From a virus (Duplodnaviria; Caudoviricetes): a stretch of DNA of 64,000 bases. The notes beneath the pieces were generated by a model. That model saw only the letters and a list, made by a program, of their open reading frames with translations. It searched no databases and was not told the origin of the DNA. Position numbers and translations under genes: made by a program. Location of the stretch: positions 201,481 through 265,480 of the IMG/VR virus record IMGVR_UViG_3300031992_000007, one strand, 5' to 3'. Positions 3,871 to 61,632 of the stretch are shown one piece after another. How positions within the stretch are numbered: position 1 is the first letter of the stretch; every line of letters begins with the position of its first letter.

Positions 3871-3884
3871 AAATAAAAGGTTAG

Positions 3885-3916
3885 AGGCAGAGGACCCCGC
3901 AAGGGGTCCTCTGCCT
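3885..3916. terminator. Hairpin between convergent genes
   Basis: AGGCAGAGGACCCC-GCAA-GGGGTCCTCTGCCT, a perfect 14-bp stem. Confidence 0.8.
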
Positions 3917-3920
3917 TCTG

Positions 3921-5015: not shown

Positions 5016-5089
5016 TCATTTCTCCTTATTGGGATGAGAGACATAAAATTGAACCCTCCTACCAGCCGAAGCTGGTAGGAGAGTAATGA

Positions 5090-16902: not shown

Positions 16903-18654
16903 CTAGGCTACGATACAACACCAGGCAACACCAGGTGCAGTCTGTATCCCATTAACATCTGTTTTGTCAGCCGCTACCTTTGACATACTGCAAGGAGCAG
17001 TGCTCACTACCTCAGTCCCTAGAGGAGGAGGTTCAGTGAACCCTCTGCTCTTGACAGACCATACCGACGAGTCTCCTATTACAGAGTACACGTTAGGTGA
17101 AATCTCTATCATTCCCAAGGATCTGGTGTAATAGCCAGACAACTGTCCGTTCACATCGTACTTGACGTGAGATCTTGTTTCACCCAATTCAGGGATCTCG
17201 ATCTCTGGGTTGAAGTACGTCCAGAACAATCCTTCAGGAACAGTGAAGAAGACCGCACTGTTCTTGCCGAAGAGTTCATAGTACGAAGGAATGAAGATCT
17301 TGTCCTTCGTCACCACTGGAGGATAACGGGGAGTCGATCCAGGATGAGTCAAGTCACTACCAAGAGTTGTGACAGCAGCATCAGCTAGAACATTCCTAAA
17401 CTCTGCTTCTAGGAAGTCGTAGAATCCAGGCATTTCTCGCTTGCCGTATACACAAACCTGTTCACCAGCACCTGCGGGCAGATCATGAGGATGGGTAGGT
17501 TCGAATTCGTAGAACGCCTCGAAATACCCAAGCTCTTTCGGGTTAACTCTGTCCGGCCACGGTGGAATAGGAACTTGGATGTAGTTGCCTTCTTCAAGAA
17601 TGAAGTAGTACTTGTTCAGATCCCACTTGACGTCCTCAGACACCGTGAATCTGGTGTGTTTATTGAGGAACTGTCTCAAGTTGGATGATACCCAATCAGC
17701 TCTTCCTCTTTCACTTGCCCAGTAGGTCTTGTCCGCCTCACTGATGTTATCAGCTGGGTTGACAACTGTCTGCCTGAGTTCATTGATAATGGAATGCTGC
17801 TCCTTGGCATCATAAGTACACTTGGGGAGGCAGTGTCTCGACATAAAGATAACACCTGGTTTCTGAACAACAGTGTCTCCTTGGTACACAGGGATATTAG
17901 TTCCCATATGAACAACTTGGAGATCAAGAGTTCCAAGAAGTCCGTGCTCGATCTCGACACAGTCTCCAACAGCGAAGATAGTTCCGCCTTTCCCAGCACG
18001 GATAATATCCCGAACATCTTCCCAAGTGAGAGTCTTGGAACCTTCTGCATCCAAGCCAGTTGCTACACCGTACTTAGTAACAGCGAAGATGTTGTAGGAG
18101 TAGTTCATCCCTCTAGGATAAGTGTCGAACAGAGGATCCTCCGCAGTGTAGTGATCACGTACACCAGACATGGCAACTATCTCACCATCGTGGATAGTCT
18201 TGGGCTGATAGGCATCAGGGTCTCCACCAGAAGGTACGAACTTGCGTACCACGACAGTATAAGCCCAAGTTGCACTGTCAGCAGCATCTCTGTACTTCTT
18301 GTCCTTAGGATCAGTCCAATACAAAGTTGTGTAACCACTGTAGCTATCGATGGTGATGTTGACATCACTAACCTTATCCAGAGCACCAGCTTCAGAGAAG
18401 GTAGCTATCTCCCAGGAGTAGACGATAACCTTGATACCAGTTGAAGGATCAACCTCATAGTGTGACACGCACTTATAGACATAACCCTTGAGGTAAATGC
18501 GATCACCTACTTTGCAGGACTCTCTTAGGAAGAAACTCTGACCAAAGTTATCCTTACTAGGTGTAGGCAGTTCGTCTACAACATGGATGAGAGAACGAAG
18601 ATCTTCAGGTAAAGCGACCAATTCATCGTTGTCGATCAGTCTGTATTTCTTCAT
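16903..18654 (-). CDS. Fibre paralog: FN3-like plus DUF6273/CLec-like domain
   Basis: WTDP, WAYTVVVRK, FAVGD, WVSSNLRQFLN, DKIFIPS, YYTRS motifs. Confidence 0.7.
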   Translation of the reverse strand: MKKYRLIDNDELVALPEDLRSLIHVVDELPTPSKDNFGQSFFLRESCKVGDRIYLKGYVYKCVSHYEVDPSTGIKVIVYSWEIATFSEAGALDKVSDVNITIDSYSGYTTLYWTDPKDKKYRDAADSATWAYTVVVRKFVPSGGDPDAYQPKTIHDGEIVAMSGVRDHYTAEDPLFDTYPRGMNYSYNIFAVTKYGVATGLDAEGSKTLTWEDVRDIIRAGKGGTIFAVGDCVEIEHGLLGTLDLQVVHMGTNIPVYQGDTVVQKPGVIFMSRHCLPKCTYDAKEQHSIINELRQTVVNPADNISEADKTYWASERGRADWVSSNLRQFLNKHTRFTVSEDVKWDLNKYYFILEEGNYIQVPIPPWPDRVNPKELGYFEAFYEFEPTHPHDLPAGAGEQVCVYGKREMPGFYDFLEAEFRNVLADAAVTTLGSDLTHPGSTPRYPPVVTKDKIFIPSYYELFGKNSAVFFTVPEGLFWTYFNPEIEIPELGETRSHVKYDVNGQLSGYYTRSLGMIEISPNVYSVIGDSSVWSVKSRGFTEPPPLGTEVVSTAPCSMSKVAADKTDVNGIQTAPGVAWCCIVA

Positions 18655-18662
18655 AATTCTCC

Positions 18663-19970
18663 TTAACCGATAGATAGGATAACGTAAGACGTTTTCTTCG
18701 ACTTGGCCACATCCAGCTCAGTGTAGTACTTCCCTAGAGAGTAGTATCTGTACCAGAGTTTGAAAGTGTCTTCGATATTGGGAGTCATTGACCAACCAGT
18801 TAGGTTGTACTGCTCTAGTTCACTAACTGTAGGAAGACGCACTCTATTTGGAACATTGTCCAGGAAGTCATTAGTTTCCAGGATCATGCTCGTGAAGATA
18901 GAGTCTAGTCCATTTAGGTAGTTGATGAATGTACCATTGAGGTAAGCTCTAGATGTGCTAGTGCTCCACTTGTTACTACCATTGGCAACAGCTTCCATAT
19001 CTGTTTCCTTGACATAGATACCCATGCTGGAAGTGATGTGCGTACCAGTAGGAACGGATGTCACAACGAACAATCCATTCTTCTTGATGTAATACACCTT
19101 GGTACCTTTGGCAGGAGCTATCTCATCTGTTACAAGGATGTACTGAGCGTGGGCATTATCGAAGGCAAGGTTTGCAACAGTTGACTTACTCCTGAGTGCA
19201 ACCGACCTAGGTCTAGCTGCATCGGTAGAGTGGAACATATCGAACCCTATAACCTCAAAAGAAAAACGTTTGGAACCATTAACCAAGGTTATCTCATCTC
19301 CGATGTGGAAGATCTTGTCTGCAAATCCATTCTGAATCTGGGTTGACATGATCGGTCCCCACTCGGGAGACTGAGGAATAACCTGACAGGTATCATCAGA
19401 GGAAACTACTCCATCTGCACTGTAAGCGAAGACTTTGTAGCGAGCAGCACCAGAGAGTCGTTCAGGAAGGAGATCAATGAATGCTTCACTCTGTCCCCAG
19501 TACTGATCCCTGATAGTGGATTCAACTACAACCGTCCCGTCATTTTCATTGGCAGGATAGTCCTGGAACTTACGGACGACACGAGTTTTCTTCCACGCAT
19601 ACCTTCCAGTGTTCTCAGGATCTTTCCACCTGAGGATAACAGAAGACTTATCGGGAGACTGAACACATGTGATCTCAGTAGGTATACCAACTCCCTTGGT
19701 AGGAGCACTCAACCTAACCCACTTGGTAACATCAACATTCTTCTCCGTGGTGAGCACTTCCCCCGGCTGGAACGAGCCTATTCTGACTGACGGGATACAA
19801 ATCTTGTGCGGGTAAATACCAACATCAGGAAGTACATCAACGAATTTATACGCCCAACAGATGTCTGTACCATCTGGAATCACTTCCTCGCTACCGATCT
19901 TACCTGATCTCGTACAAAACTCAGCTTCTGGTGGAATATAAGGAACGAACTTCTCCATGATTCTAGCCAT
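18663..19970 (-). CDS. Fibre paralog: FN3-like plus DUF6273/CLec-like domain
   Basis: WKDP, WKKTRVVRK, PANENDGTVV, FHIGDEI, WSTSTSRAYLN motifs. Confidence 0.7.
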   Translation of the reverse strand: MARIMEKFVPYIPPEAEFCTRSGKIGSEEVIPDGTDICWAYKFVDVLPDVGIYPHKICIPSVRIGSFQPGEVLTTEKNVDVTKWVRLSAPTKGVGIPTEITCVQSPDKSSVILRWKDPENTGRYAWKKTRVVRKFQDYPANENDGTVVVESTIRDQYWGQSEAFIDLLPERLSGAARYKVFAYSADGVVSSDDTCQVIPQSPEWGPIMSTQIQNGFADKIFHIGDEITLVNGSKRFSFEVIGFDMFHSTDAARPRSVALRSKSTVANLAFDNAHAQYILVTDEIAPAKGTKVYYIKKNGLFVVTSVPTGTHITSSMGIYVKETDMEAVANGSNKWSTSTSRAYLNGTFINYLNGLDSIFTSMILETNDFLDNVPNRVRLPTVSELEQYNLTGWSMTPNIEDTFKLWYRYYSLGKYYTELDVAKSKKTSYVILSIG

Positions 19971-20051: not shown

Positions 20052-20411
20052 TTACGTCTTTGCCTGTTCTTGCATCAACTTGTCCCTGTATGCACAATCT
20101 CTTCCTTTGTCTGGATTGACTATACACTTCCTGTACGGGCAGTAGAACTGTTCGGACCTAGGAGTTGGAGGCTGGTTCAACTTCTTAAGAACTCCATCGA
20201 TGATCCTTTCAGCTGGAGAAGGTGTTAGCTTCTGTAGAGCTGGGCACTGGGAACAGGACTTAAGATAGTTCACTATGCCCGTGTGCCACTTCCACCTGCG
20301 CCTGATAGCTAAAGGTGAGTTGTCAGTTAGATCAGGAAGGTCATGATGCTTCTTTCGCAGGGCTTGAGGCATTGCTTTTCTTTCCTTTCTTAGATGGTTT
20401 TGGAGCTTCAA
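20052..20411 (-). CDS. Possible small Cys-rich protein overlapping the end of the Avd-like gene
   Basis: CSQC and CPYRKC motifs; fills an otherwise empty gap; start uncertain. Confidence 0.35.
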   Translation of the reverse strand: MKLQNHLRKERKAMPQALRKKHHDLPDLTDNSPLAIRRRWKWHTGIVNYLKSCSQCPALQKLTPSPAERIIDGVLKKLNQPPTPRSEQFYCPYRKCIVNPDKGRDCAYRDKLMQEQAKT

Positions 20412-21327
20412 TTTCCTCTGTCATCTCGTCAGGTGTATTCCCCGATGAGATCTCAATGGTAGCAGCTAAAGGTTTCTTAGCTTCTTCCTCAGGATCTATC
20501 TTGGGTTGTGGTTCATCTCTGTCATCAGGGAGGATGATAGGTTCAGCTGGAACAACTTCCACTCTAACATCTCTGGCAGGAATAGCTTTCTCAGCGTAAC
20601 CAGGACGATGAGGTGGTTCCAGTTCCTGTTTAGGTTGCCCGAACAAGAACTTGTCATTCTTAAGAGCCGCTTCTCTTTCCTCTTCTGACATCTTCACGTA
20701 CCTTACTTCCTCCTGAGGAGCTTTAGGTAGACTGTCAGCCGGTGGGATATACCTGGGTTTGTCAGGATCAAGATGGTAGCTTGCTGGAGCTTGAGCACGA
20801 ACGTCCTTAATAAGACTATCGAAGTCAACTCTAACAGGAGCTGTTCCCATGATCTCAGCTGCAGTTATCTTGTGTTTGAAGAAAGAAGTGTCAACCTTGT
20901 CTTTCCTGAGGATGTGGAGAGAAGCTCCCTGTCTGGCAGCATCGCTTTCCATCCACTTCTTCAACAGTCTTTCTACCTCGATAGACTTTGTCAAGAAGAC
21001 AGACATCTTCTCACTGTCCATCTGAGTAACTGTATAAAGAACTCTAAGGGCTGCAAGGAGTTTAACCAACTCTCTTCTGCACAATGTCTGAAGTCTTTTC
21101 CTCTCTTCAGCTAGGTCTTTGTCGTAGAGATCCAAGGAGTTAGCAACTGCTATATTCTCGTAGATGTACTGAGTGTGATCAGTAATGCACTTACCCAGAG
21201 TGTCCCTATAGACTCGACTAAGTACATTTTCATCCAAAGTAGCTTGCTGCATCAAGATGTGAAGTTCCCTAGATCTCTCTAGAACAGTAAGTGTAGGAGG
21301 AGTCCTTTGGTCCCTGGTAGTTTCCAT
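20341..21327 (-). CDS. Avd-like four-helix-bundle protein (DGR accessory variability determinant family) with a long Pro/Glu/Lys-rich C-terminal extension
   Basis: N-terminal ~130 aa (YRDTLGKCI...IYENIAVANS...ERKRLQT...EVERLLKKWMESDAAR) follows the Avd-family pattern as I recall it. ATG at 21327 is coupled (TAATG) to the upstream ORF. Confidence 0.65.
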   Translation of the reverse strand: METTRDQRTPPTLTVLERSRELHILMQQATLDENVLSRVYRDTLGKCITDHTQYIYENIAVANSLDLYDKDLAEERKRLQTLCRRELVKLLAALRVLYTVTQMDSEKMSVFLTKSIEVERLLKKWMESDAARQGASLHILRKDKVDTSFFKHKITAAEIMGTAPVRVDFDSLIKDVRAQAPASYHLDPDKPRYIPPADSLPKAPQEEVRYVKMSEEEREAALKNDKFLFGQPKQELEPPHRPGYAEKAIPARDVRVEVVPAEPIILPDDRDEPQPKIDPEEEAKKPLAATIEISSGNTPDEMTEEIEAPKPSKKGKKSNASSPAKEAS

Positions 21328-21599
21328 TATCGTATCCCCCAATTTTTAACAGGTAAGTGTTGTCTTGGAATAGGACTACTGGGAATATAGAGATCAGAAT
21401 AAATGTACCTACGAAACGCTGATTCGAGATATGAAGCATGTCCGTATCTGACTCGTGGTATCTGTGTTTCCAACGACCCAGACAAAACTCTACGTCTCAG
21501 CTGTGCGTTTTCGACTATATCGAGGATCTTCTGTCCGTCTCTATCGGAGAGTTCTACAAGCTCAGATTCGCCACCATTAACGGCTAATTCTAGTAACAT
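21327..21599 (-). CDS. Hypothetical protein, translationally coupled to the Avd-like gene
   Basis: AGGAGG RBS; stop codon overlaps the next ATG. Confidence 0.6.
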   Translation of the reverse strand: MLLELAVNGGESELVELSDRDGQKILDIVENAQLRRRVLSGSLETQIPRVRYGHASYLESAFRRYIYSDLYIPSSPIPRQHLPVKNWGIR

Positions 21600-23093: not shown

Positions 23094-26000
23094 TTACCCA
23101 ATAGTAATCAGCGGGGAGAGCCTATGTTTATTCCATATGAGGTTCTCAGCCATGCCAATAGGGTACTGTTTGTGTGAATACCCTATAGAACTCATAGTTC
23201 CATTACTAGGAACCTTCTGAGTGTCAGCAGGAGTCTGGGCACTGTTGTAAGACCATATTTCACCTCCGGCGGAGCGGAGCCACCAGTACTGGGCAGCAGT
23301 CGTCGAATCGCTGTACCCATTCGCCAGATGCTGCCCAAGAGTGAGAGAATACTTGATGCGACTGTCATTCAAACTCGTGGCTCCGAACACCGCGAAGTTC
23401 TTATTGCACATCGCCCATTTCTTCAACCCGTACTTGTGGCCTTCCTGGTAGGGAATACCGTACCTGTTCTCATCGGCAACACCGAAGGTAATCCAACGAC
23501 CGTTCGCTTCACCCGACCATTCCTCGTAAACTCCGTTGTTGGCGGCGACGCCGCCAACAATCTGATTCGTCGACATGAGCCAGACCTTATCCACGCTCAC
23601 GGTGCCACCGAGGTTGCCCTCTTTCACACCGGCACGAGGATAGAAGTCGAATGCACCAGTCGTACCGTACAGACCGTTGCGGTTGACTACAGGAACGATC
23701 GCGTTGAGGAAGTCATACGCATCTTGGAGATCCGTCTTGTAGTTCGGGTTGACTTCATAGAGTCCGCACGCGTAAGGTTTGTTGGTACCGATATTGGTAA
23801 CCTCCTCATACCTACCATAGAGATTCCTCTTGAAGTACGTCTTCCCTTCTACAGGAGACATATCTGCAGAACGCTTGTACTGACAATCAATGAACCCGTG
23901 GAGGAAGGACTGTCTGGGTGTACGCTGACGGGTGGTAACTGTGACTCCAGTCGTGGTTCCGGATTTTGTACCCTCGACCAGCACTATTCCACTCGCCCAT
24001 CCCTGATTAGTATCAGCGATGTTCGTTTCGTTAGTGTAGGGCGATTTGTTCTTGATCGCTCCAGTAAGCATGTACGTGCTATTCCCAGCAACACCTTTGT
24101 CAATGTAGACCATCTTGTACATTTCAGCAAGCTGATCGTACTTGAGTCCGTTGTTGACAGAAGGCTGTTCCGTCCACCACTGATCACCCTCGGTGAAGAC
24201 AGGCACCCAGTTCCCGTTTTCATACTTGTACTGCATGACTGGAGATGCGCCGTAATTCCAGTATTTGCTAGGCTGGTTGAGATCCAGCTTCACACCTACA
24301 GGAACACCACCATCGATCTTCGTGTAGACAGGCTGTTTGCCGTTGTGAGCAATACTCCAGTCCTTGATGCTTGTGTTCTTCAGCCAGTGGTTGGAGTCAA
24401 CAGCACCAGATGTAGACGTTTCTGTGAGCCTGACATACCCACCAGAGACGAACTTGTAGTAGACTCTGGAAGTTACGAAGTTGACATCAGCAGTTTCGAC
24501 GTACTCCTTGGATGTATCGAAAGGTCCGTTGAGGTAGCAGCGGACATTCGACTGACACCAAACGTGGTTACCATAGGCAACACGTTCCAGGTTGGGAGTC
24601 TTGTTGAACAACCAGACGCGGAAGTTTCCATTGACGTTCTGGATCGGACCTTCGAAGACATCCGTAGTACGGAAGCAGAAGTTGGATCCCGAACCAGCAC
24701 TGCTAGCGGCACTCTTGGAAGGGCTATATGTGCTCCCAGAAGCCCAGCTCGGGGTAGCTCCGAATATGTCCTTAGTGATAGGAATGTACTCGCCACTAGC
24801 GTCGAGCGCACCCATCGTCCAGACATAGTCATTAGCTGTTTTCTTCTTGGCAACGAAGTATCCCTGACCAGCACGAATAGGAACCAGATCACCGACAGAA
24901 TACGTACCCGCGTAGGTAGCCGACTGAGCCGAAGTGATGGTAACGGATGTTGCAGAGGTGAAGTCCATCTTGATCCACGACGGAGTGTAGTAGCCGCTGA
25001 CGGAAGCATTGTGAGCTACACGTACACGACGATACACGTAGGGATCAGAATAGTCACCAACTGTGGTCTCATTAGAACCGCCACCAAGACGTTCATAGTA
25101 GAAGACACCAGGTTCGGACTTCTGACTTGATCCGCACGCCACCCATGTTGCCAGCCAGTACACTTTACCAGCGACGAACGTCTCATCCTGCGTAGGCATT
25201 TTGAGAAGAGGTTCGAGCGTCGGGTCAGCACCGCACACCTTGGAGAGGTTCATGTTCGGCGTTGTGGATATGCTGTAGTCCCCATCAACGTACTGTTGAC
25301 ACTTAGCCTTGACTTCGGCAGTCGCGTTCCGGTTGCCGAATATGCACGCGTAGATGTTGCGCAGATCGTCAGAGCAGTCGCGCATGTACACACGATACTC
25401 CGTGACGTAGTTCGTCTGCTTACTTGCAGCCGCATCTACTACATGCTTGCTGATAAGGGTTTCAGCAGGAACGAAGTACTTGATCAAGGAACTGTAGCTG
25501 GTACCAAAGATCAGGTCTTTCGTATCCTTTACCTTCCGAACTGGCATGAAGTAATCAGCCAGATGATTCGCACGAGGAGTGCAGGAACCGAGGTTCATCG
25601 TACCATCATCGATACAGTTCGCTCCCTTTCCAGTCCTCCGACAACCCGCACCCCAGGCATCCGTAACAGCTTCCAACGCCTCTGGGTTGTACATGCCGTT
25701 CTTTCCGGTGGGGTTAGTCTTGGAGTAGTACTTGTTTGAACCAGTGGATGCTGAATACAGTGCCTGTATGGCGCAGACCTTAGATGCAGACTCATACACC
25801 GTACCAGATACTGCATCACCAACGACTACAGTTTTCACTGTACCAGTATCGTTGGAGTAGTAGGTCTTGTTGGGCTGATACACAACATCCTTAGTGACGA
25901 TGAAGTCGGCAGAACCCGTAGACCTACGAAGGTCGGAGCATATCACATTGCCACCATACTGAATAGAAGTTCCGCCGGGGACAACACGAGTCGCTTCCAC

Positions 26001-27332
26001 GAACGGATTACGATACACAGTAGTGTACGGGAGTTCGCACTCACAAGGTGCGTTGGTAACAGACCACTTACCCCACGTCAGGCTAGCCACACCGTACGTT
26101 TCGGAACTTGCCGAGCCGTACTCATCATTTTCCCGATTAGCATCGAATACTGTCTCGACGTAATGGTTGTAGGCCTGTTCCTGTGCGTACACTTCTTTGT
26201 GGGGAGTCGTAGCTGTATACTCTGTGGTATTCAGCTTTATACAAGCGAAATAGACTCGGTTCAAATCACGAACGCTATCCCGAGTTGCAGCTCCTGCCCT
26301 CTCGTTGGTATCAAATACGTAACCAACGCCGTAGTGATCCCACCAGGAGTAGAGGTACTTAGACTGAAGAGTCATCGTGAACTTGACCTTCGAGTCATAA
26401 GGCTCGACGTTATCGAAGTCAACAACTTCGAAAGCCATGTCACCATAGTCGCCGTGATACGGGAGAGTGAGGATGGTTCCTATAGGGAAGTAGTCTTCCG
26501 CGATACCATTCTGCACCAGTTCCTTGATACCAGCCCAGTTGAGCAGGCAGTTCTGGTACGCGTAGTACGGAACACCCTTCTTGAACTCACGGAAACCAGC
26601 GTCGCCGATGGTCCAGTTGTCGGTGTTGTTCGGATCAACCAGTTCGTATTTGTACAAACCAGTTTCCGTATCCAGCATTCTGAAGTAGTAGTCACGATAG
26701 ACTGGCTGACCTTCAGTGTCCAGAGTGTACGGATGAGCATCACTCGTGATGATGTAGTTAAAACCAGCAACACGACCGTTCTGATCGTCGTTGGTAATAG
26801 CATCATCGTCAGAGTACGGGAAGAGTTTGAAGTAGTGCTTTCTCGCACTGTTGTCCTGGAGTGTCATGCTGAATGAACCAAATGCAGCATAAGCATTCCT
26901 GGACTCGTTCGTGCAGAGAACAGTACCGTCGTTCACAGTCAGAGGCATGTGACCAACCTGATGGACGAGAACAGTCTTCTTCCAGTGGGTGATTTCAGAG
27001 CCGACGATAACATCATCGGGGTCCTCCCAGGCCATGATGACTCGGAGCTGAGTACCATCGTCGTACATGCTGATACGAATGTTCTTGCAGTTACCCACAG
27101 AGAACCGACCAACATGCAGATCCATCCAGTAATAAAGACCAGTTTCGGAGTCCTGAGCGCACTTGTAGAAGTGTGACTTGACGTAGCCGTCCTGGGAACC
27201 ATCGAGCAGGTAAACTATGCCGAAGTTTTCAGCAGAAGCAGTAGGCAACTGCATGGTCACACGAGGCATGTTCTCCAGATCGAACTCAGTTGGAATCCAC
27301 TCGTGATTCCGGATCGTATCCAATTGTTTCAT
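23094..27332 (-). CDS. 1412-aa tail fibre / receptor-binding protein with a DUF6273/CLec-like C-terminus; target of the cassette arrays
   Basis: FN3-like N-terminal domain, WCQSNVRCYLN, DKVWLMS and YWWLRS motifs; tip region identical to cassette 42218-42377. Confidence 0.85.
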   Translation of the reverse strand: MKQLDTIRNHEWIPTEFDLENMPRVTMQLPTASAENFGIVYLLDGSQDGYVKSHFYKCAQDSETGLYYWMDLHVGRFSVGNCKNIRISMYDDGTQLRVIMAWEDPDDVIVGSEITHWKKTVLVHQVGHMPLTVNDGTVLCTNESRNAYAAFGSFSMTLQDNSARKHYFKLFPYSDDDAITNDDQNGRVAGFNYIITSDAHPYTLDTEGQPVYRDYYFRMLDTETGLYKYELVDPNNTDNWTIGDAGFREFKKGVPYYAYQNCLLNWAGIKELVQNGIAEDYFPIGTILTLPYHGDYGDMAFEVVDFDNVEPYDSKVKFTMTLQSKYLYSWWDHYGVGYVFDTNERAGAATRDSVRDLNRVYFACIKLNTTEYTATTPHKEVYAQEQAYNHYVETVFDANRENDEYGSASSETYGVASLTWGKWSVTNAPCECELPYTTVYRNPFVEATRVVPGGTSIQYGGNVICSDLRRSTGSADFIVTKDVVYQPNKTYYSNDTGTVKTVVVGDAVSGTVYESASKVCAIQALYSASTGSNKYYSKTNPTGKNGMYNPEALEAVTDAWGAGCRRTGKGANCIDDGTMNLGSCTPRANHLADYFMPVRKVKDTKDLIFGTSYSSLIKYFVPAETLISKHVVDAAASKQTNYVTEYRVYMRDCSDDLRNIYACIFGNRNATAEVKAKCQQYVDGDYSISTTPNMNLSKVCGADPTLEPLLKMPTQDETFVAGKVYWLATWVACGSSQKSEPGVFYYERLGGGSNETTVGDYSDPYVYRRVRVAHNASVSGYYTPSWIKMDFTSATSVTITSAQSATYAGTYSVGDLVPIRAGQGYFVAKKKTANDYVWTMGALDASGEYIPITKDIFGATPSWASGSTYSPSKSAASSAGSGSNFCFRTTDVFEGPIQNVNGNFRVWLFNKTPNLERVAYGNHVWCQSNVRCYLNGPFDTSKEYVETADVNFVTSRVYYKFVSGGYVRLTETSTSGAVDSNHWLKNTSIKDWSIAHNGKQPVYTKIDGGVPVGVKLDLNQPSKYWNYGASPVMQYKYENGNWVPVFTEGDQWWTEQPSVNNGLKYDQLAEMYKMVYIDKGVAGNSTYMLTGAIKNKSPYTNETNIADTNQGWASGIVLVEGTKSGTTTGVTVTTRQRTPRQSFLHGFIDCQYKRSADMSPVEGKTYFKRNLYGRYEEVTNIGTNKPYACGLYEVNPNYKTDLQDAYDFLNAIVPVVNRNGLYGTTGAFDFYPRAGVKEGNLGGTVSVDKVWLMSTNQIVGGVAANNGVYEEWSGEANGRWITFGVADENRYGIPYQEGHKYGLKKWAMCNKNFAVFGATSLNDSRIKYSLTLGQHLANGYSDSTTAAQYWWLRSAGGEIWSYNSAQTPADTQKVPSNGTMSSIGYSHKQYPIGMAENLIWNKHRLSPLITIG
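23115..23274 (-). repeat. Expressed variable region: exact 160-bp inverted copy of 42218-42377
   Basis: Base-by-base comparison gives 160/160 identity, from CTCCGCCGGAGGTG to AGGCTCTCC. Confidence 0.97.
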
Positions 27333-33247: not shown

Positions 33248-33789
33248 AGGTGTAGGATCTATAAGCAAGATGGCGTTGTGGTTAGTCTTAGGATTTCAGC
33301 ACAACACAATGATAAACAATCAAGATTTTTCGTGGTGGAACAACACTAGATTCAGTCATCTTGCAAACTCAGAACAGATAAGGCTCTCCTGGAGGTGACT
33401 ATATTGGTCCAGAATCAGATAAATTTGAAAACCACCGGAATGCAAATTGTCAACACAAATCTTCAGGACTAGCACAGGGTGTAGAAGTTAATGGATCGAA
33501 TACAAATAAGCTAGCATGGCTCTCCAATGAGGTGGAAACTTCTTAATTGAAATAGGCAAAGGTGGAGGTTGGATACGTGGTGCAACAGACGGCTGGGGAC
33601 TAATGCCACAAATGGAACGCAACACTGAATCCAATGGAACTAAAAGACACGAAAGGCTCTCCAGGTGGATTCGGTATTCTGTCAGCAACTCCTTGGTATG
33701 TCTACGCAGGTGGGAATGAAAATTTTAATGGCGCAGTGGTATCATCATTGATTTCCATTAATATAAACTATTTCCCCAAAGGGCTCTCC
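33248..33789 (+). repeat. Cassette array A: 4 fibre-tip cassettes
   Basis: AGGTG at 33248, 33393, 33530, 33663; GGCTCTCC at 33382, 33518, 33655, 33782; GGT-to-TCC lengths 141, 132, 132, 126 nt, all open. Confidence 0.92.
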
Positions 33790-33820: not shown

Positions 33821-33848
33821 CACCAGGGTCCCCGCGGGGACCCTGGTG
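33821..33848 (-). terminator. Terminator hairpin bounding array A
   Basis: CACCAGGGTCCC-CGCG-GGGACCCTGGTG preceded by an A-tract on +. Confidence 0.8.
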
Positions 33849-41536: not shown

Positions 41537-42377
41537 AGGTGAAGGATGTAATGTCATGACGTATAAGTGGGATGGGAGTCCGACGATACATCCCTACGAG
41601 AACGGTTTACCAAATGCCGCTGCTGTTCGCAAAGAACTAAAATGGCTCTCCAGTTAGAGAGGTGGAATAGAACAACAAGGAAAACATAGACAGGAAGTAA
41701 ATTGTGTTGCTGGTGCGTGGTGGAACTATGGAGGACTTGATTCATATATGAATCAACCACCATGTGGATTGATCGTACACCCTAGGCTCTCCATCAGGAG
41801 GTGGGTTTCTACAAGTGCAGAAACTAACAGAGACGTATGTAAACGTAATAGCTGGCGGACCTCCTGGAACAGCGGGGTATGCACAAGGCATCTATCCGTT
41901 ATTTGACGCATCGGGTTACAATAGGCTAGGAAGGCTCTCCTGAGGTGAGACTGTAAAAGATGCCAGCAAAGAAAACACTTATTACGTTTGTGAACTATGG
42001 AGGATAGATGATTTAGGTCAACCACAAGCACCTGAAGCATATGGACGAGATTGGGCATCTGGTTCAACTATCCTCACCAGGCTCTCCAGGGAGGTGAATA
42101 CAGAAACGCTGCGAATGGAGAAATACAATGGCACTATGTCCCAACTCTCCTTAAGTGGATAAAGACGGATGGAGATTATTGGAAGTACAGTAACAATATG
42201 TCCTACACGGAATGGCTCTCCGCCGGAGGTGAAATATGGTCTTACAACAGTGCCCAGACTCCTGCTGACACTCAGAAGGTTCCTAGTAATGGAACTATGA
42301 GTTCTATAGGGTATTCACACAAACAGTACCCTATTGGCATGGCTGAGAACCTCATATGGAATAAACATAGGCTCTCC
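41537..42377 (+). repeat. Cassette array B: 6 fibre-tip cassettes; the last matches the expressed tip
   Basis: AGGTG at 41537, 41660, 41799, 41943, 42092, 42227; GGCTCTCC at 41644, 41785, 41933, 42080, 42214, 42370; lengths 114, 132, 141, 144, 129, 150 nt, all open. Confidence 0.95.
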
Positions 42378-42391
42378 GAACAAAAAAAGAA

Positions 42392-42409
42392 AGGACCCGC
42401 AAGGGTCCT
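42392..42409 (-). terminator. Terminator hairpin bounding array B
   Basis: AGGACCC-GCAA-GGGTCCT preceded by an A-tract on +. Confidence 0.7.
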
Positions 42410-42435
42410 CCCTCGGGAGAAGCGAAAGCTTCTCC

Positions 42436-44624: not shown

Positions 44625-45904
44625 AGGTGGAATGGGGGCCAAGATAGTGAACGACAGTGGATACGGACCAAGTCATAATTACAATCCATCACCGTGTGAG
44701 TTGTTTTACGATTGGTATTCTGGTTATTACTTTACAGATAAATTAAGGCTCTCCGTGTTGGAGGTGGCGCAGACGAATCACAGGCTTGTTGGTTATGGCG
44801 GGTGTTCGGAAACAATATGGATGAGATTGTACAACCAGGGCTTGCTTCAACATCCACAAGGTTCGAGAAATCAATATCCTACAAAGCTGTAAATAGGCTC
44901 TCCAGAGAGGTGAGACTTCTCAATCCGATATTCGCCAACAACTGTGGGGAACAAACTGCCTTTACGTAATGGGGTACGATAGTAACTATGGAAGAATAGA
45001 GGGATACTACTGGGCACCACGTATTGAATCAGAGCGGGTTAAATATAGGCTCTCCTTTATCAGGAGGTGGAATACAAAATCAATGGAAGGTAGATTACAA
45101 AGAAGAATGCTCTCAAACGTGGTTGATTTGGGCAAATGGAAATTGGTCTAGTGGTGATCCTGGGAATCATGGTAGACAACCGATGGATAATGTAGTAAGG
45201 CTCTCCGCCGGAGGTATACCTAAAATCTCTGAAGAAAAACATGCTCAGTGGATGTTGACAGTGTGGGGCATTAATGGTATAGTTAGAGATAACTGGAGTG
45301 GGTCTAACAATGGCTCTGGGTACCCTAGTCGTAATGAAGATAGGCTCTCCAGTTTGGTATATAGGTGTATACAACCATCATTCGCAAATCTATTACATAT
45401 TTACAGATATTACGACTCCGTACAGAAATTCTGGAGATGTGTATTATGCTGATGAAATTGGATGGCCCTTAGCTACTAGACAAAATAGGCTCTCCAGGTG
45501 AAGCTACGCATCCAAGTGCTATGAACTCAGCATTTGGTTCCACTGGTGGATATGTAAATTCTAACTACACAATATCAGCTGCTACGTTTGAGCAAATATC
45601 GAACTGGCCAAATGATCCTCTATACGTAAGAGATCATAGGCTCTCCGAGGTGAGCGTAGTGGAGGTCAAGTAGCTGGCAACATCGGTCTTACTCTAACAT
45701 CAGGATTTAGTGCATGGGATAAAACATGGAATATCGATATCGTATCGCGACAATATGGGCTCTCCAAAAGGTGATGGAACTAGGATTCATTACTTTCTTG
45801 AAAGTGTTTGGGTAGCCCAGCCATGTCAAGGTCAATTCGACCAAGGCCTGAGATCCGAAGGAAACAACACATATCCAGCTAATGAAAAATACCACTGGCT
45901 CTCC
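44625..45904 (+). repeat. Cassette array C: 9 fibre-tip cassettes
   Basis: GGCTCTCC at 44747, 44896, 45048, 45199, 45343, 45488, 45639, 45758, 45897; each unit starts AGGTG (one AGGTA); lengths 129, 141, 147, 141, 138, 132, 150, 117, 135 nt, all open. Confidence 0.95.
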
Positions 45905-45922: not shown

Positions 45923-45948
45923 CCTACCCCACCGTGAGGCGGGGTAGG
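45923..45948 (-). terminator. Terminator hairpin bounding array C
   Basis: CCTACCCC...GTGA...GGGGTAGG preceded by an A-tract on +. Confidence 0.75.
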
Positions 45949-45983
45949 TGGTTCGTTCAGATATGCATCACTGCAAGTCTTAC

Positions 45984-47309
45984 TTAGGCATTGAGCGCAG
46001 CCTTCTCAGCGGAGAGAATGAGCGCGTTCTTGCCACGGCACCAGTTGAACTGAGCCTGGAGCTGCGAGGTGACCGTAGCCGAGAACTTCTGGATGTCCAT
46101 AGCGAAATTGGCCGTGGCATACATGAAGTTACGGAAGATCCGGTTAGCATCACTCGAGGCCGCGAAACCAGTACCCTCATCACCCGTCTTCTTCATGTCA
46201 TCGGCGATCTTCGAGATCACAGAATCAGACACGACGTCCGGATTGACGTTAGCCCAAACGCTGATGAAGTCCTGGAGCTGCTTGCGCGAGTTCCAGCCGA
46301 GCTGGGTGTTGGAACCCTTCTGCTCGACCTTGGAGATCGTGAGACGAAGCTTTCCAGCCTCGTTAGCATCCCAGTTCGAGTCAACCTTGACGCCAATACC
46401 GAGGTACACTGCCATGACGTCCTTGATCTTGCGGATCTCGGCATACACAGCATTGAGTTCCTTCTCGGCCATAGCCTCAAGGCTACCCTGACCACCATCC
46501 TTCTTGAGCTGCTGTTCGATAGCAAGCCAGCCCTTCTTGGACATAGCTGCGGCAGCAGAAGCCTGACGACGGCAGAACTCCATATCCTTGGCGTAACGCT
46601 TCACTGCCTCAAGCGCACCCTTGTAGGTGCAAGGAGCAGTGTTCGGAGCCGGAGCCGGAGCAACCTCAACCTTGGCGACTTCCTTAGCGGCAGCCTCCTT
46701 CTTAGCCTCAGGAGCAGCCTTAACGGCCTCCTTAAGCTCGGTCTTGGCCTTCTCGGTCTCCTCAGGGGTCGAAGCAGCAACAACCGCGTCAGCCTGCTTC
46801 TCAACACCCGCAGCAGCCGTCGCCTTGGCAGCGGCTTCAGCCTTGGGAGCTTCCGATTTGTTCTTGGTGAAGAGATTCTTCAGCCAGTTCCAGAAGCGAG
46901 AAGCATAGTCCTTGATCTTGGCCCAGAGTTCCGCGAAGAACTTCTTGATCTTCTCCCAAACGCTGTCACCAGCGGCCTCGATAGCCTTCTCCCACTTCTG
47001 GTCGAGAGCCTCAAGAGCCTCTTCGCCCATCGACTCGAGAGACTCGAGCGAGGGAGCCTGGAGATTGAGCGCAGCCTGGAGCGATCCATCCGAATCGAGA
47101 ATGCCGAGCGACTCCTCACCCACACCGAAGGTAGAGATCGTGTCGAGAGCGGTCTGGAGGGACTCCAGAACCATCTCCGCTTCAGCGAGGTTACCCTGGC
47201 AGGTAGCGATGTCAGCAAGAGCAGCATTCATCCCCTCGACAGAGTCAAGGATCGATTCAGCTGCCGGCTTATCGAACGTAGTGGAGCTGATGGAATACTT
47301 AAGTGCCAT
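45984..47309 (-). CDS. phiKZ-like internal head protein paralog
   Basis: Repeated SLE/ALE/AIE sites, then VWEKIKKFFAELWAKIKDYASRFWNWLKNLF. Confidence 0.75.
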   Translation of the reverse strand: MALKYSISSTTFDKPAAESILDSVEGMNAALADIATCQGNLAEAEMVLESLQTALDTISTFGVGEESLGILDSDGSLQAALNLQAPSLESLESMGEEALEALDQKWEKAIEAAGDSVWEKIKKFFAELWAKIKDYASRFWNWLKNLFTKNKSEAPKAEAAAKATAAAGVEKQADAVVAASTPEETEKAKTELKEAVKAAPEAKKEAAAKEVAKVEVAPAPAPNTAPCTYKGALEAVKRYAKDMEFCRRQASAAAAMSKKGWLAIEQQLKKDGGQGSLEAMAEKELNAVYAEIRKIKDVMAVYLGIGVKVDSNWDANEAGKLRLTISKVEQKGSNTQLGWNSRKQLQDFISVWANVNPDVVSDSVISKIADDMKKTGDEGTGFAASSDANRIFRNFMYATANFAMDIQKFSATVTSQLQAQFNWCRGKNALILSAEKAALNA

Positions 47310-47320
47310 ATTCCACCTCC

Positions 47321-48364
47321 TTACTTCGCCAGATCGGGGTTAGCCTTGTTACCCATGTTCGCAAGCGTCACCATCGTGTTCGCAGCGACCGACACCAGCG
47401 TGTTGTAGATGCCGATGTACTGGTTGGCACGAGAGACGTCTTCCTTGCGAGTCTTCGCGAGCTCACCCGGAGCCTTCTTGGCTTCATCGGACGCACCATC
47501 AGCCTTAGCCGCATCTTCAGCAGCCTTGATAGCATCAGCGAACGCCTTGTCGACGCCACTAACAGCTTCCTTGGCCTTGGAGCCAATAGCGCATGCAGCG
47601 AAAGTCTTGGCGATACCGTCGGCCTGGGAAGCCCAGTCACCAACAGAGATCTCCTTCTTCTCGAACACAGTCGCGTAGTCCTCGGACTTCTCGATCTTGT
47701 TGCCCTCACCGAGCTTGAGACCAGCAGCCTTCAGAACCTCAGCGGACGGAGCAGGGAAGGAAGCCTTAGCAGCCGCCTTCACGCAATCGAGGATCGCGTC
47801 AGCAGCCTTAAGAGCAGCACTAACCTGCGCAGGCGAGAGCATCTTCGCCTTCTTGTCCTTGGGAAGGTACTTGAACACGCCCTTCTTCTGAGCCTCGTTG
47901 ACGATACGAACAGCCTTGGCGTTCTTATCGAAGAGCTCCTTGAACCAGCGCTTGATCTTCGCCCAGAGATCCTTGAGGAACTGGACGAGCTTGCCCCAGT
48001 ACTCCGAGAGCTTGCCCTCGAGGCCAGAGACATAGTTTTCCTTGCGGACCTTCTTAACAGCGGCACCGAGAGACTCAATCGCCTCGAGATCGAGGTTCTC
48101 GAGACCGAGAATCTGATCGAGCTCGTTACTGCCATTGAAGACGGCCATCGTAGTCGCCGTCACGCCGAACTTCTCGATCGACTCAACAGCGGACTTGCAG
48201 TTGTCCATCGCCATCTCAACTTCGGCGACACGACCTTCGGCAGCAACGACCTGCTCGTACGCGTCGCTCAGACGGAGGTACGAATCAGTAAGCGCCTCGG
48301 TCGCAGCAGCGAAGTCGAACTTGGAAGCGACAGGCTTCTGCGTAGAACCGATAGAATACTTCAT
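47321..48364 (-). CDS. phiKZ-like internal head protein paralog
   Basis: Likely start MKYSIG; GLE/AIE sites, then YWGKLVQFLKDLWAKIKRWFKELF. Confidence 0.75.
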   Translation of the reverse strand: MKYSIGSTQKPVASKFDFAAATEALTDSYLRLSDAYEQVVAAEGRVAEVEMAMDNCKSAVESIEKFGVTATTMAVFNGSNELDQILGLENLDLEAIESLGAAVKKVRKENYVSGLEGKLSEYWGKLVQFLKDLWAKIKRWFKELFDKNAKAVRIVNEAQKKGVFKYLPKDKKAKMLSPAQVSAALKAADAILDCVKAAAKASFPAPSAEVLKAAGLKLGEGNKIEKSEDYATVFEKKEISVGDWASQADGIAKTFAACAIGSKAKEAVSGVDKAFADAIKAAEDAAKADGASDEAKKAPGELAKTRKEDVSRANQYIGIYNTLVSVAANTMVTLANMGNKANPDLAK

Positions 48365-48431
48365 TTTACTTGTATCCTTATTGTTGTTTGTGCTGACATG
48401 CATAAAATATAGTAGCTATGTACAGCACCGC

Positions 48432-49831: not shown

Positions 49832-50458
49832 TTACGATGCATCCTGAGGATCAAGGACAGCACTGGCAGCCTTGTTGAAGATCATGCAGTTGTGCATAAC
49901 CTTGAGAGCTGCGAAGTGAGACTCCTTGTCGATATCACCACACAGTTCACCTATGACAGTGATTGGAGTATTCGGGAACGCCGCTCTCAACACAAGTGCA
50001 TTAGACACAACACAGATGGATGTGCAATAACCGCAAAGAACGATCTCTTCGATGTTCTCCTGGGTCACACAAGCATTGGATCTAATGATACTAACTAGCT
50101 GATCTGTGCCAAATGCCTCCTTCATGATCTGATGTCCACGTGGGATGTTCACAAAGTGCATTGCGTCAGTGGTACGGCTCAAACCTTCGATCAACCGATG
50201 ACCTTCTGTTTTGATGATGCAGTGTTCAATTGGGAGGTTCTTACCTTCGTACGTTTCAGCGTACGCTGTGTGACAACACCCAGCATCCTTGCTCGGATAA
50301 TGTGTGTCGAGAGTAGCGAACATCGCATATCCGCGTTTACGACACTCATTAGCGAACTCGACGATCTTCTGGTGGTTAGGCTCCTCAGGGTAAGCATACG
50401 GAAGAGCGCCTCCCTTCACGAAGTCATTCTGAACATCGATGAATACGACAACTTTCAT
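49832..50458 (-). CDS. pncA: Nicotinamidase (isochorismatase/cysteine hydrolase family)
   Basis: IDVQNDF, DTH, HC, GYCTSICV motifs. Confidence 0.88.
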   Translation of the reverse strand: MKVVVFIDVQNDFVKGGALPYAYPEEPNHQKIVEFANECRKRGYAMFATLDTHYPSKDAGCCHTAYAETYEGKNLPIEHCIIKTEGHRLIEGLSRTTDAMHFVNIPRGHQIMKEAFGTDQLVSIIRSNACVTQENIEEIVLCGYCTSICVVSNALVLRAAFPNTPITVIGELCGDIDKESHFAALKVMHNCMIFNKAASAVLDPQDAS

Positions 50459-50469
50459 GTTGGTTCTCC

Positions 50470-51270
50470 TTATTGTGGGTTTACGACGTAGTTAGGATAA
50501 TCCTCGAAGAGCACTCCGGGGATATCGATGATATCCGATTTGAACTTGTTCCACTTGTACTTCTCGTTGACGATCTTGACAACCTGTTCATCTACCACGG
50601 AAGCTCCGTAGCGAATGTACTTGTCAACGTCGGCGTACTTGACACCAAGGTTGTCTTCGTCGGTTTTACCAGAGAGTCCATCGGCAGGTGTCTTGTCCAC
50701 CAGATGAGCAGGAAGGCCCAGCTCATGTCCAATTTGAACAACCTCGGTTGCAGTAAGCCCACGCAGAGGAGCGAAACTTCCGGCTATATCACCGTACAAA
50801 GTTCCATATCCGAGTATAGACTCACTGAGGTTACTGGTGTTGACGACTATGCCACCAACCGCCTGGGCAACGTAGTACAGCGTAGCCATACGTATCCTGG
50901 GCGGAAGGTTGGTATCAGCAACAGTTAGTCTCATGCCCCTGATAACATCATTGGTGATGATCTGTTCTCTGAGGTTGTTAGCAGAGGGGCCGATGTTTAC
51001 GGTTATCTTGTCGATACCGAGGGTATCTGCGATCTCGTGAGAGTCGTCGATATCCGGCTGATCCCCGCAGGGCATCAGAACACCAATGACGTTCTCCTCT
51101 CCGCGGTACTTGGCATAGAGTCCCGCAGCAACAGTGGAGTCCTTACCACCACTGATGCCAATGACCCATCTGGTATTCAGAGGGAGATTGTTCTTAACTC
51201 TCCAGAACTCTATTCCTGAACAGATCTTGGTGATAGCTTCTTTTGGATTGAACTTAAACGGTTCTTTCAT
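50470..51270 (-). CDS. nadE: NH3-dependent NAD+ synthetase
   Basis: GISGGKDS, RIRM, NTSNLSE, GYGTLYGD, PADGL, DEDNLG motifs. Confidence 0.92.
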   Translation of the reverse strand: MKEPFKFNPKEAITKICSGIEFWRVKNNLPLNTRWVIGISGGKDSTVAAGLYAKYRGEENVIGVLMPCGDQPDIDDSHEIADTLGIDKITVNIGPSANNLREQIITNDVIRGMRLTVADTNLPPRIRMATLYYVAQAVGGIVVNTSNLSESILGYGTLYGDIAGSFAPLRGLTATEVVQIGHELGLPAHLVDKTPADGLSGKTDEDNLGVKYADVDKYIRYGASVVDEQVVKIVNEKYKWNKFKSDIIDIPGVLFEDYPNYVVNPQ

Positions 51271-52465
51271 TTTGTTCTCCTTGTTTATAATGCGATGGGT
51301 GTTTGCGGTAGTTGTCATAGAGGAACAAGGCAGTGCACATCAGTGCAGGCATAGACTTATCCTCAGATTGATCCGTGTTGTAGGCCCTGCTGAACAACTC
51401 GTCGATGGAGTGTCTAGACACTGACAACTTCTCGTGCTCGTCCAGGTGTTGTGGAACAGTTAAACGTTTCACTTCATCTAGATCGAGGAAGAAGTAGTGC
51501 ATGTAGTTGGTCATAAAGGCAGGATTGGTAGGAACCTTGCCAAGGTAGACCAACTTATCGATGTCTGCAGCTACGATACCAGTCTCTTCTTCCAGTTCTC
51601 TCACCGCAGCCTTTGCTGGCGGTTCGTCACACTCGACCATCCCACACGGGAACTCAACGAATTCCTTCATGAGTCCATAGCGAAGCTGCTTGACAGTGAC
51701 GAACTTGTCTCCATCCTTGACCAGGATAGTTACCCAGTCGTTAGAACGGATTTTGACTGGTTTGAAGTCAAGCTCCTTAACGTAGCTCTGAGTAAGATCG
51801 AAGATGGCTGTCGAATAGAGCAACCTGTCCTCACCTGTTACACTGGAGATGTAATCTCCAACGTTGGAGAACTGCTGTCTGATCTTGGTTGCAGATACTT
51901 CATCGTACTTGGGATCGATAGAGATCTCTTCGTGTTCGATGTCAGCAACAGCTGGGTTGATAGGAAGATTCCCGCGTCTTACGACAACCAGCTTAGCTAG
52001 TTTAAGGATATCCTCCCAGTTCGTCCACATCTTGAACATGTTGAACTCATCAAGTCCAATAACTACCTTGAACTTTTTGGGTATCCTCTCGGTGCCCAGG
52101 AGACTACACGTCGACTTACCGCGTATAAACGAAATCAGACAGTCGATGAATCTTCTCCTGTGCTGGTAGACCTCTTTGAGGGCTTCGTCGTCAATCCTGT
52201 CGAAGTTCATGATCTCGCATTCATCCACCATCCATCTATGGCAAGATAGGGTGGAGGTGTTCTTCATGATCCTGTAGATCGTGTGAATTCTTTCGACTCC
52301 AGTCAACCAAGGTTTCTTGTCAGCTCTATGCCAACAGACCACAGAAGGAACGATGGTCACGTGATCTGCAATACCTTGGCTGATGATCTCTTCTACGATC
52401 GCTCTGTGGGCAACAGTGAACGGATCGGCTGTTACGCCGAATATGGCTTCTGTAAGCATGTGCAC
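51254..52465 (-). CDS. NadD-like nucleotidyltransferase fused to a Nudix hydrolase
   Basis: GVTADPFTVAH (HIGH-type variant), IGLD, VSATKIR; Nudix box GMVECDEPPAKAAVRELEEETG. Confidence 0.82.
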   Translation of the reverse strand: MHMLTEAIFGVTADPFTVAHRAIVEEIISQGIADHVTIVPSVVCWHRADKKPWLTGVERIHTIYRIMKNTSTLSCHRWMVDECEIMNFDRIDDEALKEVYQHRRRFIDCLISFIRGKSTCSLLGTERIPKKFKVVIGLDEFNMFKMWTNWEDILKLAKLVVVRRGNLPINPAVADIEHEEISIDPKYDEVSATKIRQQFSNVGDYISSVTGEDRLLYSTAIFDLTQSYVKELDFKPVKIRSNDWVTILVKDGDKFVTVKQLRYGLMKEFVEFPCGMVECDEPPAKAAVRELEEETGIVAADIDKLVYLGKVPTNPAFMTNYMHYFFLDLDEVKRLTVPQHLDEHEKLSVSRHSIDELFSRAYNTDQSEDKSMPALMCTALFLYDNYRKHPSHYKQGEQNERTV

Positions 52466-61487: not shown

Positions 61488-61632
61488 AGGTGAGATGAAT
61501 CAACCTCGCGCTTATTCAAATTGTCAAACGGGTATACGTATTACTGATGCTGGTGACCGTAGTGGTGGGATGTACGTAGCAACTAAAGATCCATATCTGT
61601 CGAATAAATTTTACGGACCACACTGGCTCTCC
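61488..61632 (+). repeat. Solitary fibre-tip cassette D
   Basis: AGGTG at 61488, GGCTCTCC at 61625; 144 nt open: GEMNQPRAYS...KFYGPHWLS. Confidence 0.88.

Follow-up and report, generated by a model that had tools for sequence, protein, structure and literature searches.

Why should a 160-nt stretch that closes a silent, intergenic array in a giant phage genome recur, base for base, near the end of a fibre gene on the opposite strand? Both copies lie within the 64,000-nt stretch of DNA analysed here (the window), which covers bases 201,481-265,480 of a 265,480-bp IMG/VR virus record that CheckV rates as 100% complete. An earlier note, made from the letters of this DNA, had drawn attention to the pair, and we take up its claims where our results bear on them.

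An exact copy of a silent cassette in a fibre gene

The pair and the gene that carries one of its members are defined by five features:

42218-42377, plus strand: silent donor cassette B.5, which ends array B and matches the gene tip at 160 of 160 positions
23115-23274, minus strand: installed, expressed copy of the cassette in the fibre gene, with flanks kept in all homologues
23094-27332, minus strand: fibre gene for a putative receptor-binding protein of 1412 aa, which serves as the sole expression site of the 265-kb genome
23261-23270, minus strand: 5' anchor GCCGGAGGTG, codons A-G-G, with GGCTCCGCTCC just before it
23115-23122, minus strand: 3' anchor GGCTCTCC (R-L-S), followed by CCGCT, with a junction that is exact in every strain

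Pairwise alignment and a repeat finder agree that the plus-strand stretch 42218-42377 and the minus-strand stretch 23115-23274 are identical at all 160 positions, and 47 of the 47 adenines are kept, as the earlier note had claimed. The repeat finder describes an inverted pair of 160 nt that is 100% complementary, with arms 18,943 nt apart, and it reports no other long repeat in the 64-kb window. Chance cannot account for an exact match of this length in 64 kb. Identity stops on the 5' side at CTCC, where the gene reads GGCTCCG/CTCC and the array reads ATGGCT/CTCC, and on the 3' side at GGCTCTCC, beyond which the gene continues with CCGCTG and the array with GAACAAAA; both flank readings bear out the limits originally proposed. 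The note had also assigned positions 42218-42377 to the expressed tip. These positions do hold the last cassette of array B, on the plus strand, but the copy there is the silent one, and the expressed copy is that at 23115-23274 on the minus strand.

Cassette B.5 consists of CTCC followed by a unit that begins with GCCGGAGGTG and ends with GGCTCTCC, encodes G-E-I-W...H-R-L-S, and is open in the cassette frame. The plus-strand copy is intergenic and ends a head-to-tail array. The expressed copy is immediately preceded by the codons W-W-L-R-S and followed by the six codons P-L-I-T-I-G and a stop, and only 21 nt of the 1412-aa ORF lie beyond it. Two further descriptions in the note fit these observations: the transfer is of a copy type, given that the donor is still present, and inverted, in its array, and it is faithful, given that each of the 160 bases is the same in both places.

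A library of silent cassettes

The donor is one member of a genome-wide library of 52 silent cassettes at ten loci (nine arrays and one single unit), and 20 of the 52 fall inside the window:

33249-33789, plus strand: array A, four silent cassettes, right behind the terminator of a gene for 1570 aa
41538-42377, plus strand: array B, six head-to-tail silent cassettes, B.0 to B.5
44626-45904, plus strand: array C, nine silent cassettes
61489-61632, plus strand: locus D, a single silent cassette with AGGTG at its start and GGCTCTCC at its end, behind which come an A-rich tract and a hairpin
42387-42414, minus strand: hairpin with T-tail that closes array B, the terminator of a converging minus-strand gene
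33821-33848 and 45923-45948: equivalent hairpins at the ends of arrays A and C

Every unit opens with AGGTG (often GGAGGTG), continues for 37-51 stop-free codons and ends with (R/W/G)-L-S, encoded by GGCTCTCC. The spacers between cassettes measure 0-13 nt, are of random length and often contain stops; 14 of 42 spacer lengths are divisible by three, and a stop is present in 5 of those 14. When the frame is set by the 3' anchor, the last 35 codons are open in all 42 bounded cassettes, versus 1 of 42 in each other frame. Apart from two paralogous pairs, the cassettes resemble one another at their ends only. The anchors together with gene context were found once, which establishes a single expression site, and the sole cassette that matches the tip at this site is B.5.

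The 3' anchor GGCTCTCC occurs 21 times in the window versus 1.9 expected, and 50 times forward and 3 times reverse across the whole record. Outside the arrays and the gene it is missing from both strands, versus 8.4 occurrences expected for the 265-kb genome under a dinucleotide model, and the 7-mer GCTCTCC is seen 4 times versus 19 expected, an about four-fold depletion. We read the depletion of GGCTCTCC as probable avoidance of a site on which some sequence-specific activity would act. Locus D, as the tenth library locus, explains the only 'orphan' GGCTCTCC in the genome.

Silent cassettes also appear to be maintained. The arrays of related phages hold orthologues of C.1, G3.2, G4.6 and C.7 with 51-68% amino-acid identity, located in different arrays and separated by different spacers, and dN/dS is 0.26-0.42 for four orthologous cassette pairs between phages. 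These ratios indicate that silent cassettes are evidently under purifying selection, and cassettes that are kept by selection are presumably cassettes that are used. The start of array A is preceded by a plus-strand terminator and, because terminators bracket the arrays, they look transcriptionally insulated.

Several simpler interpretations of the cassette signals were considered and dropped. The A-rich tract and hairpin are not terminators of array transcripts, as the terminator scan assigns such elements to the minus strand and to converging genes. The GGAGGTG sequence was rejected as a Shine-Dalgarno or small-ORF signal on the grounds that start codons are not consistent downstream and that the copy exists as DNA, and AGGTG was rejected as a splice site given that the copy is present at the DNA level.

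Some cassettes carry traces of the gene itself. Pieces of the gene 5' flank (GCCGG or GCTCCGCCGG) stand before AGGTG in 5 of the 52 cassettes (B.5, G3.2, G4.6, C.4 and G6.4), and likewise in two cassettes of the related locus L029. Such bits inside arrays mean that at some time sequence also moved from gene to array, or was exchanged reciprocally.

Array orientation varies as well. At 10854-11913 of the genome, outside the window (L007, L008 and L036), two arrays stand head to head at a joint that reads CACCT-CA-TGGTG, which suggests that part of an array may have been inverted at the 5' motif. In the more distant relative L031 (positions 1-5600), cassettes alternate in orientation and meet tail to tail through GGCTCTCC-N4-15-GGAGAGCC, with an extended palindrome at some cassette junctions, and this alternation looks like the product of inversion. 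Given the gene-flank remnants, the orientation of cassettes in L031 and the head-to-head pair, sequence has also entered the arrays or been rearranged within them.

Tip switching among related phages

Homologues of the fibre, with lengths of 1553-2010 aa, are present in related giant phages from gut and animal metagenomes. Seven homologous fibres with 41-64% identity have QYWWLRSAGG and LSPLITIG as common flanks, the latter followed by the stop, around a middle that is unrelated, and the 5' anchor is kept at the nucleotide level in relatives despite the use of other synonymous codons just upstream. Scans of IMG/VR for relatives by protein pattern, by three-motif array and by the 3' pattern of the expression site found none. 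The 18 array-pattern matches in IMG/VR were all rejected as collagen-like or ordinary tandem repeats or CRISPR-like arrays, and a search for array-derived ORFs with the P0027 tip likewise yielded none.

The fibre itself has no match in Pfam or PHROG. An AF2 model of its tip domain reaches a pLDDT of 31, and hhalign gives a probability of 3% for a relationship between the tip domain and neighbouring DUF6273 proteins; the WWLRS-type motif is the sole reminder of a C-type-lectin or DUF6273-type fold. DUF6273 is a known type of DGR target. Two more fibre-like genes lie at 16903-19970, downstream of the Avd-family gene described below, and one of them has a DUF6273 domain; the C-termini of both lack the cassette anchors.

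Among close relatives, the tip is replaced as a unit. Four clusters defined at 90% identity contain near-identical fibres (98.5-100% over the 400 aa upstream) with unrelated tips between the same flanks, as in the within-cluster pairs P0009/P0016, P0010/P0018 and P0012/P0021. One 90%-identity cluster has at least seven tips, and seven of its loci are about 99.6% identical over 24.7 kb, tip excepted. Turnover of tips appears from these comparisons to be much faster than the 0.4% background divergence. These seven strains of one related phage display six different tips at the expression site. A single silent cassette, again inverted, sits about 14 kb away from the tip in these loci, and it is constant in all seven strains (0-5 SNPs). 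The installed tip of strain L035 matches this silent cassette at 163 of 164 positions for the closest allele and at 161 of 164 for its own allele, with identity bounded by CCGGAGGTG and GGCTCTCC. By its sequence, L035 is a second, independent pair of donor and copy.

The silent locus is constant, the tips vary and the L035 donor is retained, and this combination argues that sequence flows from array to gene. We agree with the earlier note that direction could not be read from one sequence; it is the comparison of relatives that supplies it. The transfer is copy-type, faithful and directed from array to gene. The view that it was recent is also upheld, as the two copies examined here are identical at 160 of 160 positions, whereas silent alleles are 1-5 bases apart among the 99.6%-identical strains of the related phage.

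The few nucleotide changes in copied tips were not counted as DGR mutagenesis. The single difference between the L035 tip and its closest silent allele is an A to G change, and P0015 and P0036, which share a tip, differ at 5 nt, 4 of which have A in one copy, although these numbers are small. Background differences are also mostly transitions.

Should the arrays instead be regarded as decaying remnants of old tips, and the exchange of tips as ordinary homologous recombination, whether inside one genome or among co-infecting relatives, with no dedicated machinery? Mosaicism is notorious in phage fibre genes, and the conserved motifs WWLRSAGG and LSPLITIG would give some homology. Against such an origin, array and gene share only 5-10 and 8 bp, decay is at odds with 42 of 42 open cassettes and with the dN/dS values, and anchor nucleotides are kept across synonymous choices in fibres that are only 41% identical. 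The avoidance of GGCTCTCC elsewhere in the genome, and tips that turn over much faster than the background diverges, point the same way, and we consider this explanation very unlikely.

Some assemblies end or are joined in unusual ways close to the tip. The contig L051 (Ga0265298_10027905), the single yield of a scan of JGI metagenomes, joins at its positions 1-400 (reverse) a sequence 83% identical to the genome's 51.0-56.6 kb to an array cassette and then to the fibre 3' flank (P-L-I-T-I-G, the stop and beyond). It is either an inversion isomer that arose by recombination between an installed tip and an inverted donor, or an assembly path through the repeat. Three independent assemblies of the seven-strain phage (L053, L054 and L055) end at the same sequence, 21-25 nt past the fibre stop and away from the repeat boundary. 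The 239-kb scaffold L031 breaks off precisely where the 5' junction of its fibre tip lies (16000-16050), in a palindromic artefact.

Breaks of this kind in related contigs, at the 5' junction or shortly past the stop, together with the path that L051 may represent, could be taken to mean that the duplication itself is an assembly artefact, in which a heterogeneous tip caused the array copy to be threaded into the gene or the reverse. We regard this as extremely improbable, given that both junctions fall exactly on functional anchors with the frame kept, and that the same relation of donor and copy is present in an unrelated assembly of another phage. Moreover, another JGI contig, 4,432 bp long, encodes this fibre with a single amino-acid change (V1262D), and its gene carries the same tip, which provides independent support that the tip truly sits there.

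Junction anatomy and a proposed copying mechanism

The two ends of the replaced segment behave differently. Every strain reads GGCTCTCC/CCGCT at the 3' junction. At the 5' junction GCCGGAGGTR is usual, and two strains read GCCGGAG/AGGTCC and GCCGGAG/TTGGTG; at the protein level this 5' junction appears as S-A-G-G, S-A-G-E, S-A-G-V or S-V-G-G. In L030 (15118-15640), three tandem cassettes with array-type spacers occupy the expression site in front of a normal 3' flank. The L030 fibre reads through two of the cassettes and stops in the second spacer, and the third cassette, which keeps P-L-I-T-I-G, is untranslated. Two in-frame cassettes are present in the sister strain P0025, and the first of these corresponds to the third in L030.

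A precise 3' end, a variable 5' end and occasional extension into adjacent cassettes are compatible with synthesis that starts from the 3' anchor and proceeds counter to the coding direction. These features do not agree with a recombinase that cuts at fixed positions. We take the anatomy to suggest that synthesis would be primed at the 3' anchor, with microhomology used to rejoin the strand.

Conservative site-specific recombination at the anchors, of a shufflon-like or integron-like kind in which double crossovers between genome copies mimic copying, has to be weighed here. It would accommodate an GGCTCTCC that is strictly conserved and avoided elsewhere in the genome, arrays that are inverted relative to the gene, gene 5'-flank remnants inside arrays, the alternating cassettes of L031 with their GGCTCTCC-N4-15-GGAGAGCC junctions, the head-to-head pair in this genome, and the join of an array cassette to the gene 3' flank in L051. 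We nevertheless judge it quite unlikely. Six-frame searches with PF00589 and PF00239 at E<=0.1 found no tyrosine or serine recombinase, the 5' junction shifts between strains even though such enzymes cut at a fixed position, and the spacers of 0-13 nt contain no fixed core. In addition, the silent locus is the same in seven strains with six tips, and a reciprocal product was not seen.

Given these observations, we favour the reading, to which we assign a probability of about 0.6, that the 160-bp stretch keeps the original of the installed tip in silent form, and that the tip reached the gene through programmed, non-reciprocal gene conversion of a whole cassette from array to gene. On this reading, the phage would maintain about 52 promoterless, mutually unrelated tips of 37-51 codons for one fibre gene, and the gene segment from GCCGGAGGTG to GGCTCTCC would occasionally be overwritten by a faithful copy of a cassette whose donor stays in place. 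A sequence-specific factor might open the gene at the 3' anchor, whereupon the freed antisense 3' end would pair with the GGCTCTCC of a donor cassette. A polymerase would then copy the cassette toward its 5' end, and the new strand would rejoin the gene via 3-10 nt of microhomology within GCCGGAGGTG. We assume a DNA template because a reverse transcriptase was not found, and the only candidate component would be the Avd-family protein encoded next to the gene. The priming and microhomology steps are those that we infer from junction anatomy alone. Against whole-cassette conversion stand the gene-flank remnants inside arrays and the alternating cassettes of L031, and two further considerations. 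To our knowledge, anchors of 8 and 5-10 bp are very short by the standards of any known homology-directed repair, and we know of no Avd-family protein that acts other than as the partner of a reverse transcriptase.

An Avd-family protein and searches for enzymes

Directly downstream of the fibre gene is the one gene that offers a connection with a known diversification system:

20341-21342, minus strand: Avd-family gene, 333 aa, directly downstream of the fibre gene, assigned by PHROG 3206, predicted fold and synteny

Its product has a predicted N-terminal four-helix bundle followed by an acidic, proline-rich tail. The N-terminal 140 residues match PHROG 3206, 'Avd protein of DGR', with E-values of 1.3e-7 and 2.6e-9, and Pfam gives no match. 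An AF2 model has a pLDDT of 73, with helices at 80-94, and the structures that it matches best (2RLD, 2GSC, Avd chains of 8UB7, and 4DWL) are S23-IVP/Avd proteins, including Avd in a DGR ribonucleoprotein. The gene stands beside the fibre gene in all relatives, with products of 322-347 aa that are 43-77% identical. In INPHARED, the only match to this protein is the phrog_3206 Avd of gut phage MT835491 (23% identical), which is encoded between a target and a reverse transcriptase. The link of the Avd-family protein to DGRs is real but partial.

Enzymes that would complete a DGR were sought in several ways. For reverse transcriptase, a six-frame search of the 265-kb genome with PF00078 (RVT_1) returned 0 candidates, a six-frame search with phrog_1423 at E<=10 returned none, the DGR reverse transcriptase of MT835491 gave nothing significant by phmmer --max and tblastn, and a motif scan of ORFs revealed no YxDD in a reverse transcriptase-like context. 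Pfam searches with another 169 ORFs (100 aa or longer) revealed no reverse transcriptase or recombinase families among the matches listed (which, for one batch, comprise 25 of 42 families). An HNH_3 gene (at 177.3 kb of the genome) and an RNase H gene (at 90.3 kb) lie far from the arrays and the fibre gene. The window has no match in Rfam.

These results bear on the possibility that tips are replaced by an RNA-templated, DGR-like retrohoming process that operates without mutagenesis, wherein array transcripts would be copied by a reverse transcriptase (divergent, or supplied in trans) together with Avd, and the resulting cDNA would replace the tip. Much of the anatomy is what retrohoming would predict: an Avd-family gene kept next to the target as in DGRs, with the precedent of the MT835491 gene order; a variable region at the extreme C-terminus of the fibre with a conserved GC-rich 3' element; an exact 3' and ragged 5' junction that matches the polarity of DGR homing; one-way transfer with the donor retained; and cassettes in sense orientation. 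We nonetheless regard it as unlikely, given that profile, phmmer, tblastn and YxDD searches found no reverse transcriptase in a genome rated 100% complete by CheckV, that 47 of 47 adenines are unchanged, and that the arrays are bracketed by terminators, have no evident promoter and have no Rfam match. The alternative raised in the earlier note, a multi-template DGR that generates A-to-N variants, is not supported, as no adenine bias is seen and a reverse transcriptase was not found.

Returning to whole-cassette conversion, we tentatively propose, at odds somewhat short of even, that giant phages could possess a targeted diversification system of a new class, perhaps derived from a DGR whose reverse transcriptase was lost, in which a factor that acts at the purged 8-bp anchor, maybe one that involves the Avd-family protein, primes faithful copying into one receptor-binding gene, with about 50 unrelated tips in store to choose from.

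The phage and the value of a stored library

Several proteins of this gut-type giant phage match internal head proteins of the phiKZ type, and the genome encodes pieces of a multisubunit RNA polymerase, a divergent family-B polymerase, DnaB, an anaerobic ribonucleotide reductase, LpxR and NAD synthase. The host is anaerobic and probably Gram-negative. The NAD synthase gene adjoins an isochorismatase-family (nicotinamidase-like) gene at 49832-51318, and genes for NAD+ synthesis are described as common in gastrointestinal jumbo phages (PMC11662467). A GC-rich block at 45948-48412 (0.565 versus about 0.47) has long ORFs on both strands, and the ORF at 47321-48403 (minus strand) within it matches phiKZ-type internal head proteins.

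It seems appropriate to ask what a phage would gain from such an arrangement. Phages are known to retarget through mutagenic retrohoming (DGRs), through DNA inversion (shufflons, Gin/Cin) and through sporadic mosaic recombination, and a store of about 50 ready-made tips that are installed by copying would add a fourth strategy. Our findings point to a switch of host range through faithful copying rather than through mutation or DNA flipping. Such a library would provide one virus with dozens of pre-tested specificities, none of which is lost upon use, and it would account for near-identical gut phage strains whose differences are confined to about 50 residues of one protein. If true, the phage would have a viral equivalent of antigenic variation or of pseudo-V gene conversion, accomplished by enzymes that are not yet known. 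The 'write' site that the system offers is programmable and very short, at 8 bp plus about 10 bp. An Avd-family protein paired with no detected reverse transcriptase would also bear on the origin or decay of DGRs. From a practical standpoint, tips of this kind interrupt metagenome assembly and mislead both strain typing and host prediction. Full-text literature searches found no description of a copy-type tip-cassette system in phages, and a 2026 review of jumbo phages does not mention DGR, cassette, gene conversion or shufflon.

Comparison with known systems

Shufflons and invertible fibre segments, such as those managed by Rci of R64, by Rin of Bifidobacterium prophages (PMC6109161) and by Gin of Mu or Cin of P1, likewise offer alternative tips for one adhesin or fibre gene by means of short repeated sites, and the arrays described here are inverted relative to the gene. 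Unlike the present system, shufflons invert DNA conservatively without leaving a duplicate, need a dedicated recombinase of a type that was not found here, and replace the C-terminal end in full. In the present phage the exchanged part is an internal segment, both junctions are restored, the last six codons are kept, and a donor is retained beside its copy in two independent phages. Integrons provide no closer parallel, as no tyrosine recombinase was found and the junctions consist of 8 bp plus 0-13 nt without imperfect inverted repeats.

DGRs, exemplified by the Mtd, TR, VR, bRT and Avd components of Bordetella phage BPP-1 and by DGRs of gut phages (PMC10743442; bioRxiv 10.1101/2024.10.15.618418), share with this locus a C-terminal variable region of a fibre, one-way copying from a template, an Avd-family gene next to the target and an exact 3' but variable 5' boundary. 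They differ in that a DGR uses one near-identical TR, whereas this phage has 52 unrelated templates, none of which is located between avd and a reverse transcriptase gene. Neither a reverse transcriptase nor a repeat pair that differs at adenines was detected, and 47 of 47 adenines are kept.

Chicken immunoglobulin pseudo-V conversion and yeast mating-type switching, initiated by AID and HO, respectively, have in common with the proposed mechanism a targeted lesion at the expressed locus that is repaired from unchanged silent donors in either orientation. Those systems have long flanking or internal homology and known initiators, in contrast to the few bases shared here.

Gene conversion from silent cassettes also underlies antigenic variation at Borrelia vlsE/vls, Neisseria pilE/pilS and Treponema tprK. 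As in those bacteria, a single expression site is served by promoterless silent arrays (52 cassettes in this genome) with short repeats, some of them inverted, and non-reciprocal copying with donor retention diversifies a surface or receptor-binding protein. The present system differs in that it belongs to a virus, its cassettes have no internal similarity, and whole units between short anchors are replaced, rather than segments by homology-driven conversion that uses host functions of the RecA/RuvAB type. Furthermore, the sequence in common amounts to only 5-10 plus 8 bp, library members are scattered across 10 loci, and the 8-bp anchor is purged from elsewhere in the genome. Taken as a whole, these comparisons make silent-cassette and pseudo-V gene conversion the closest functional analogues, and by anatomy and one component the system resembles a DGR.
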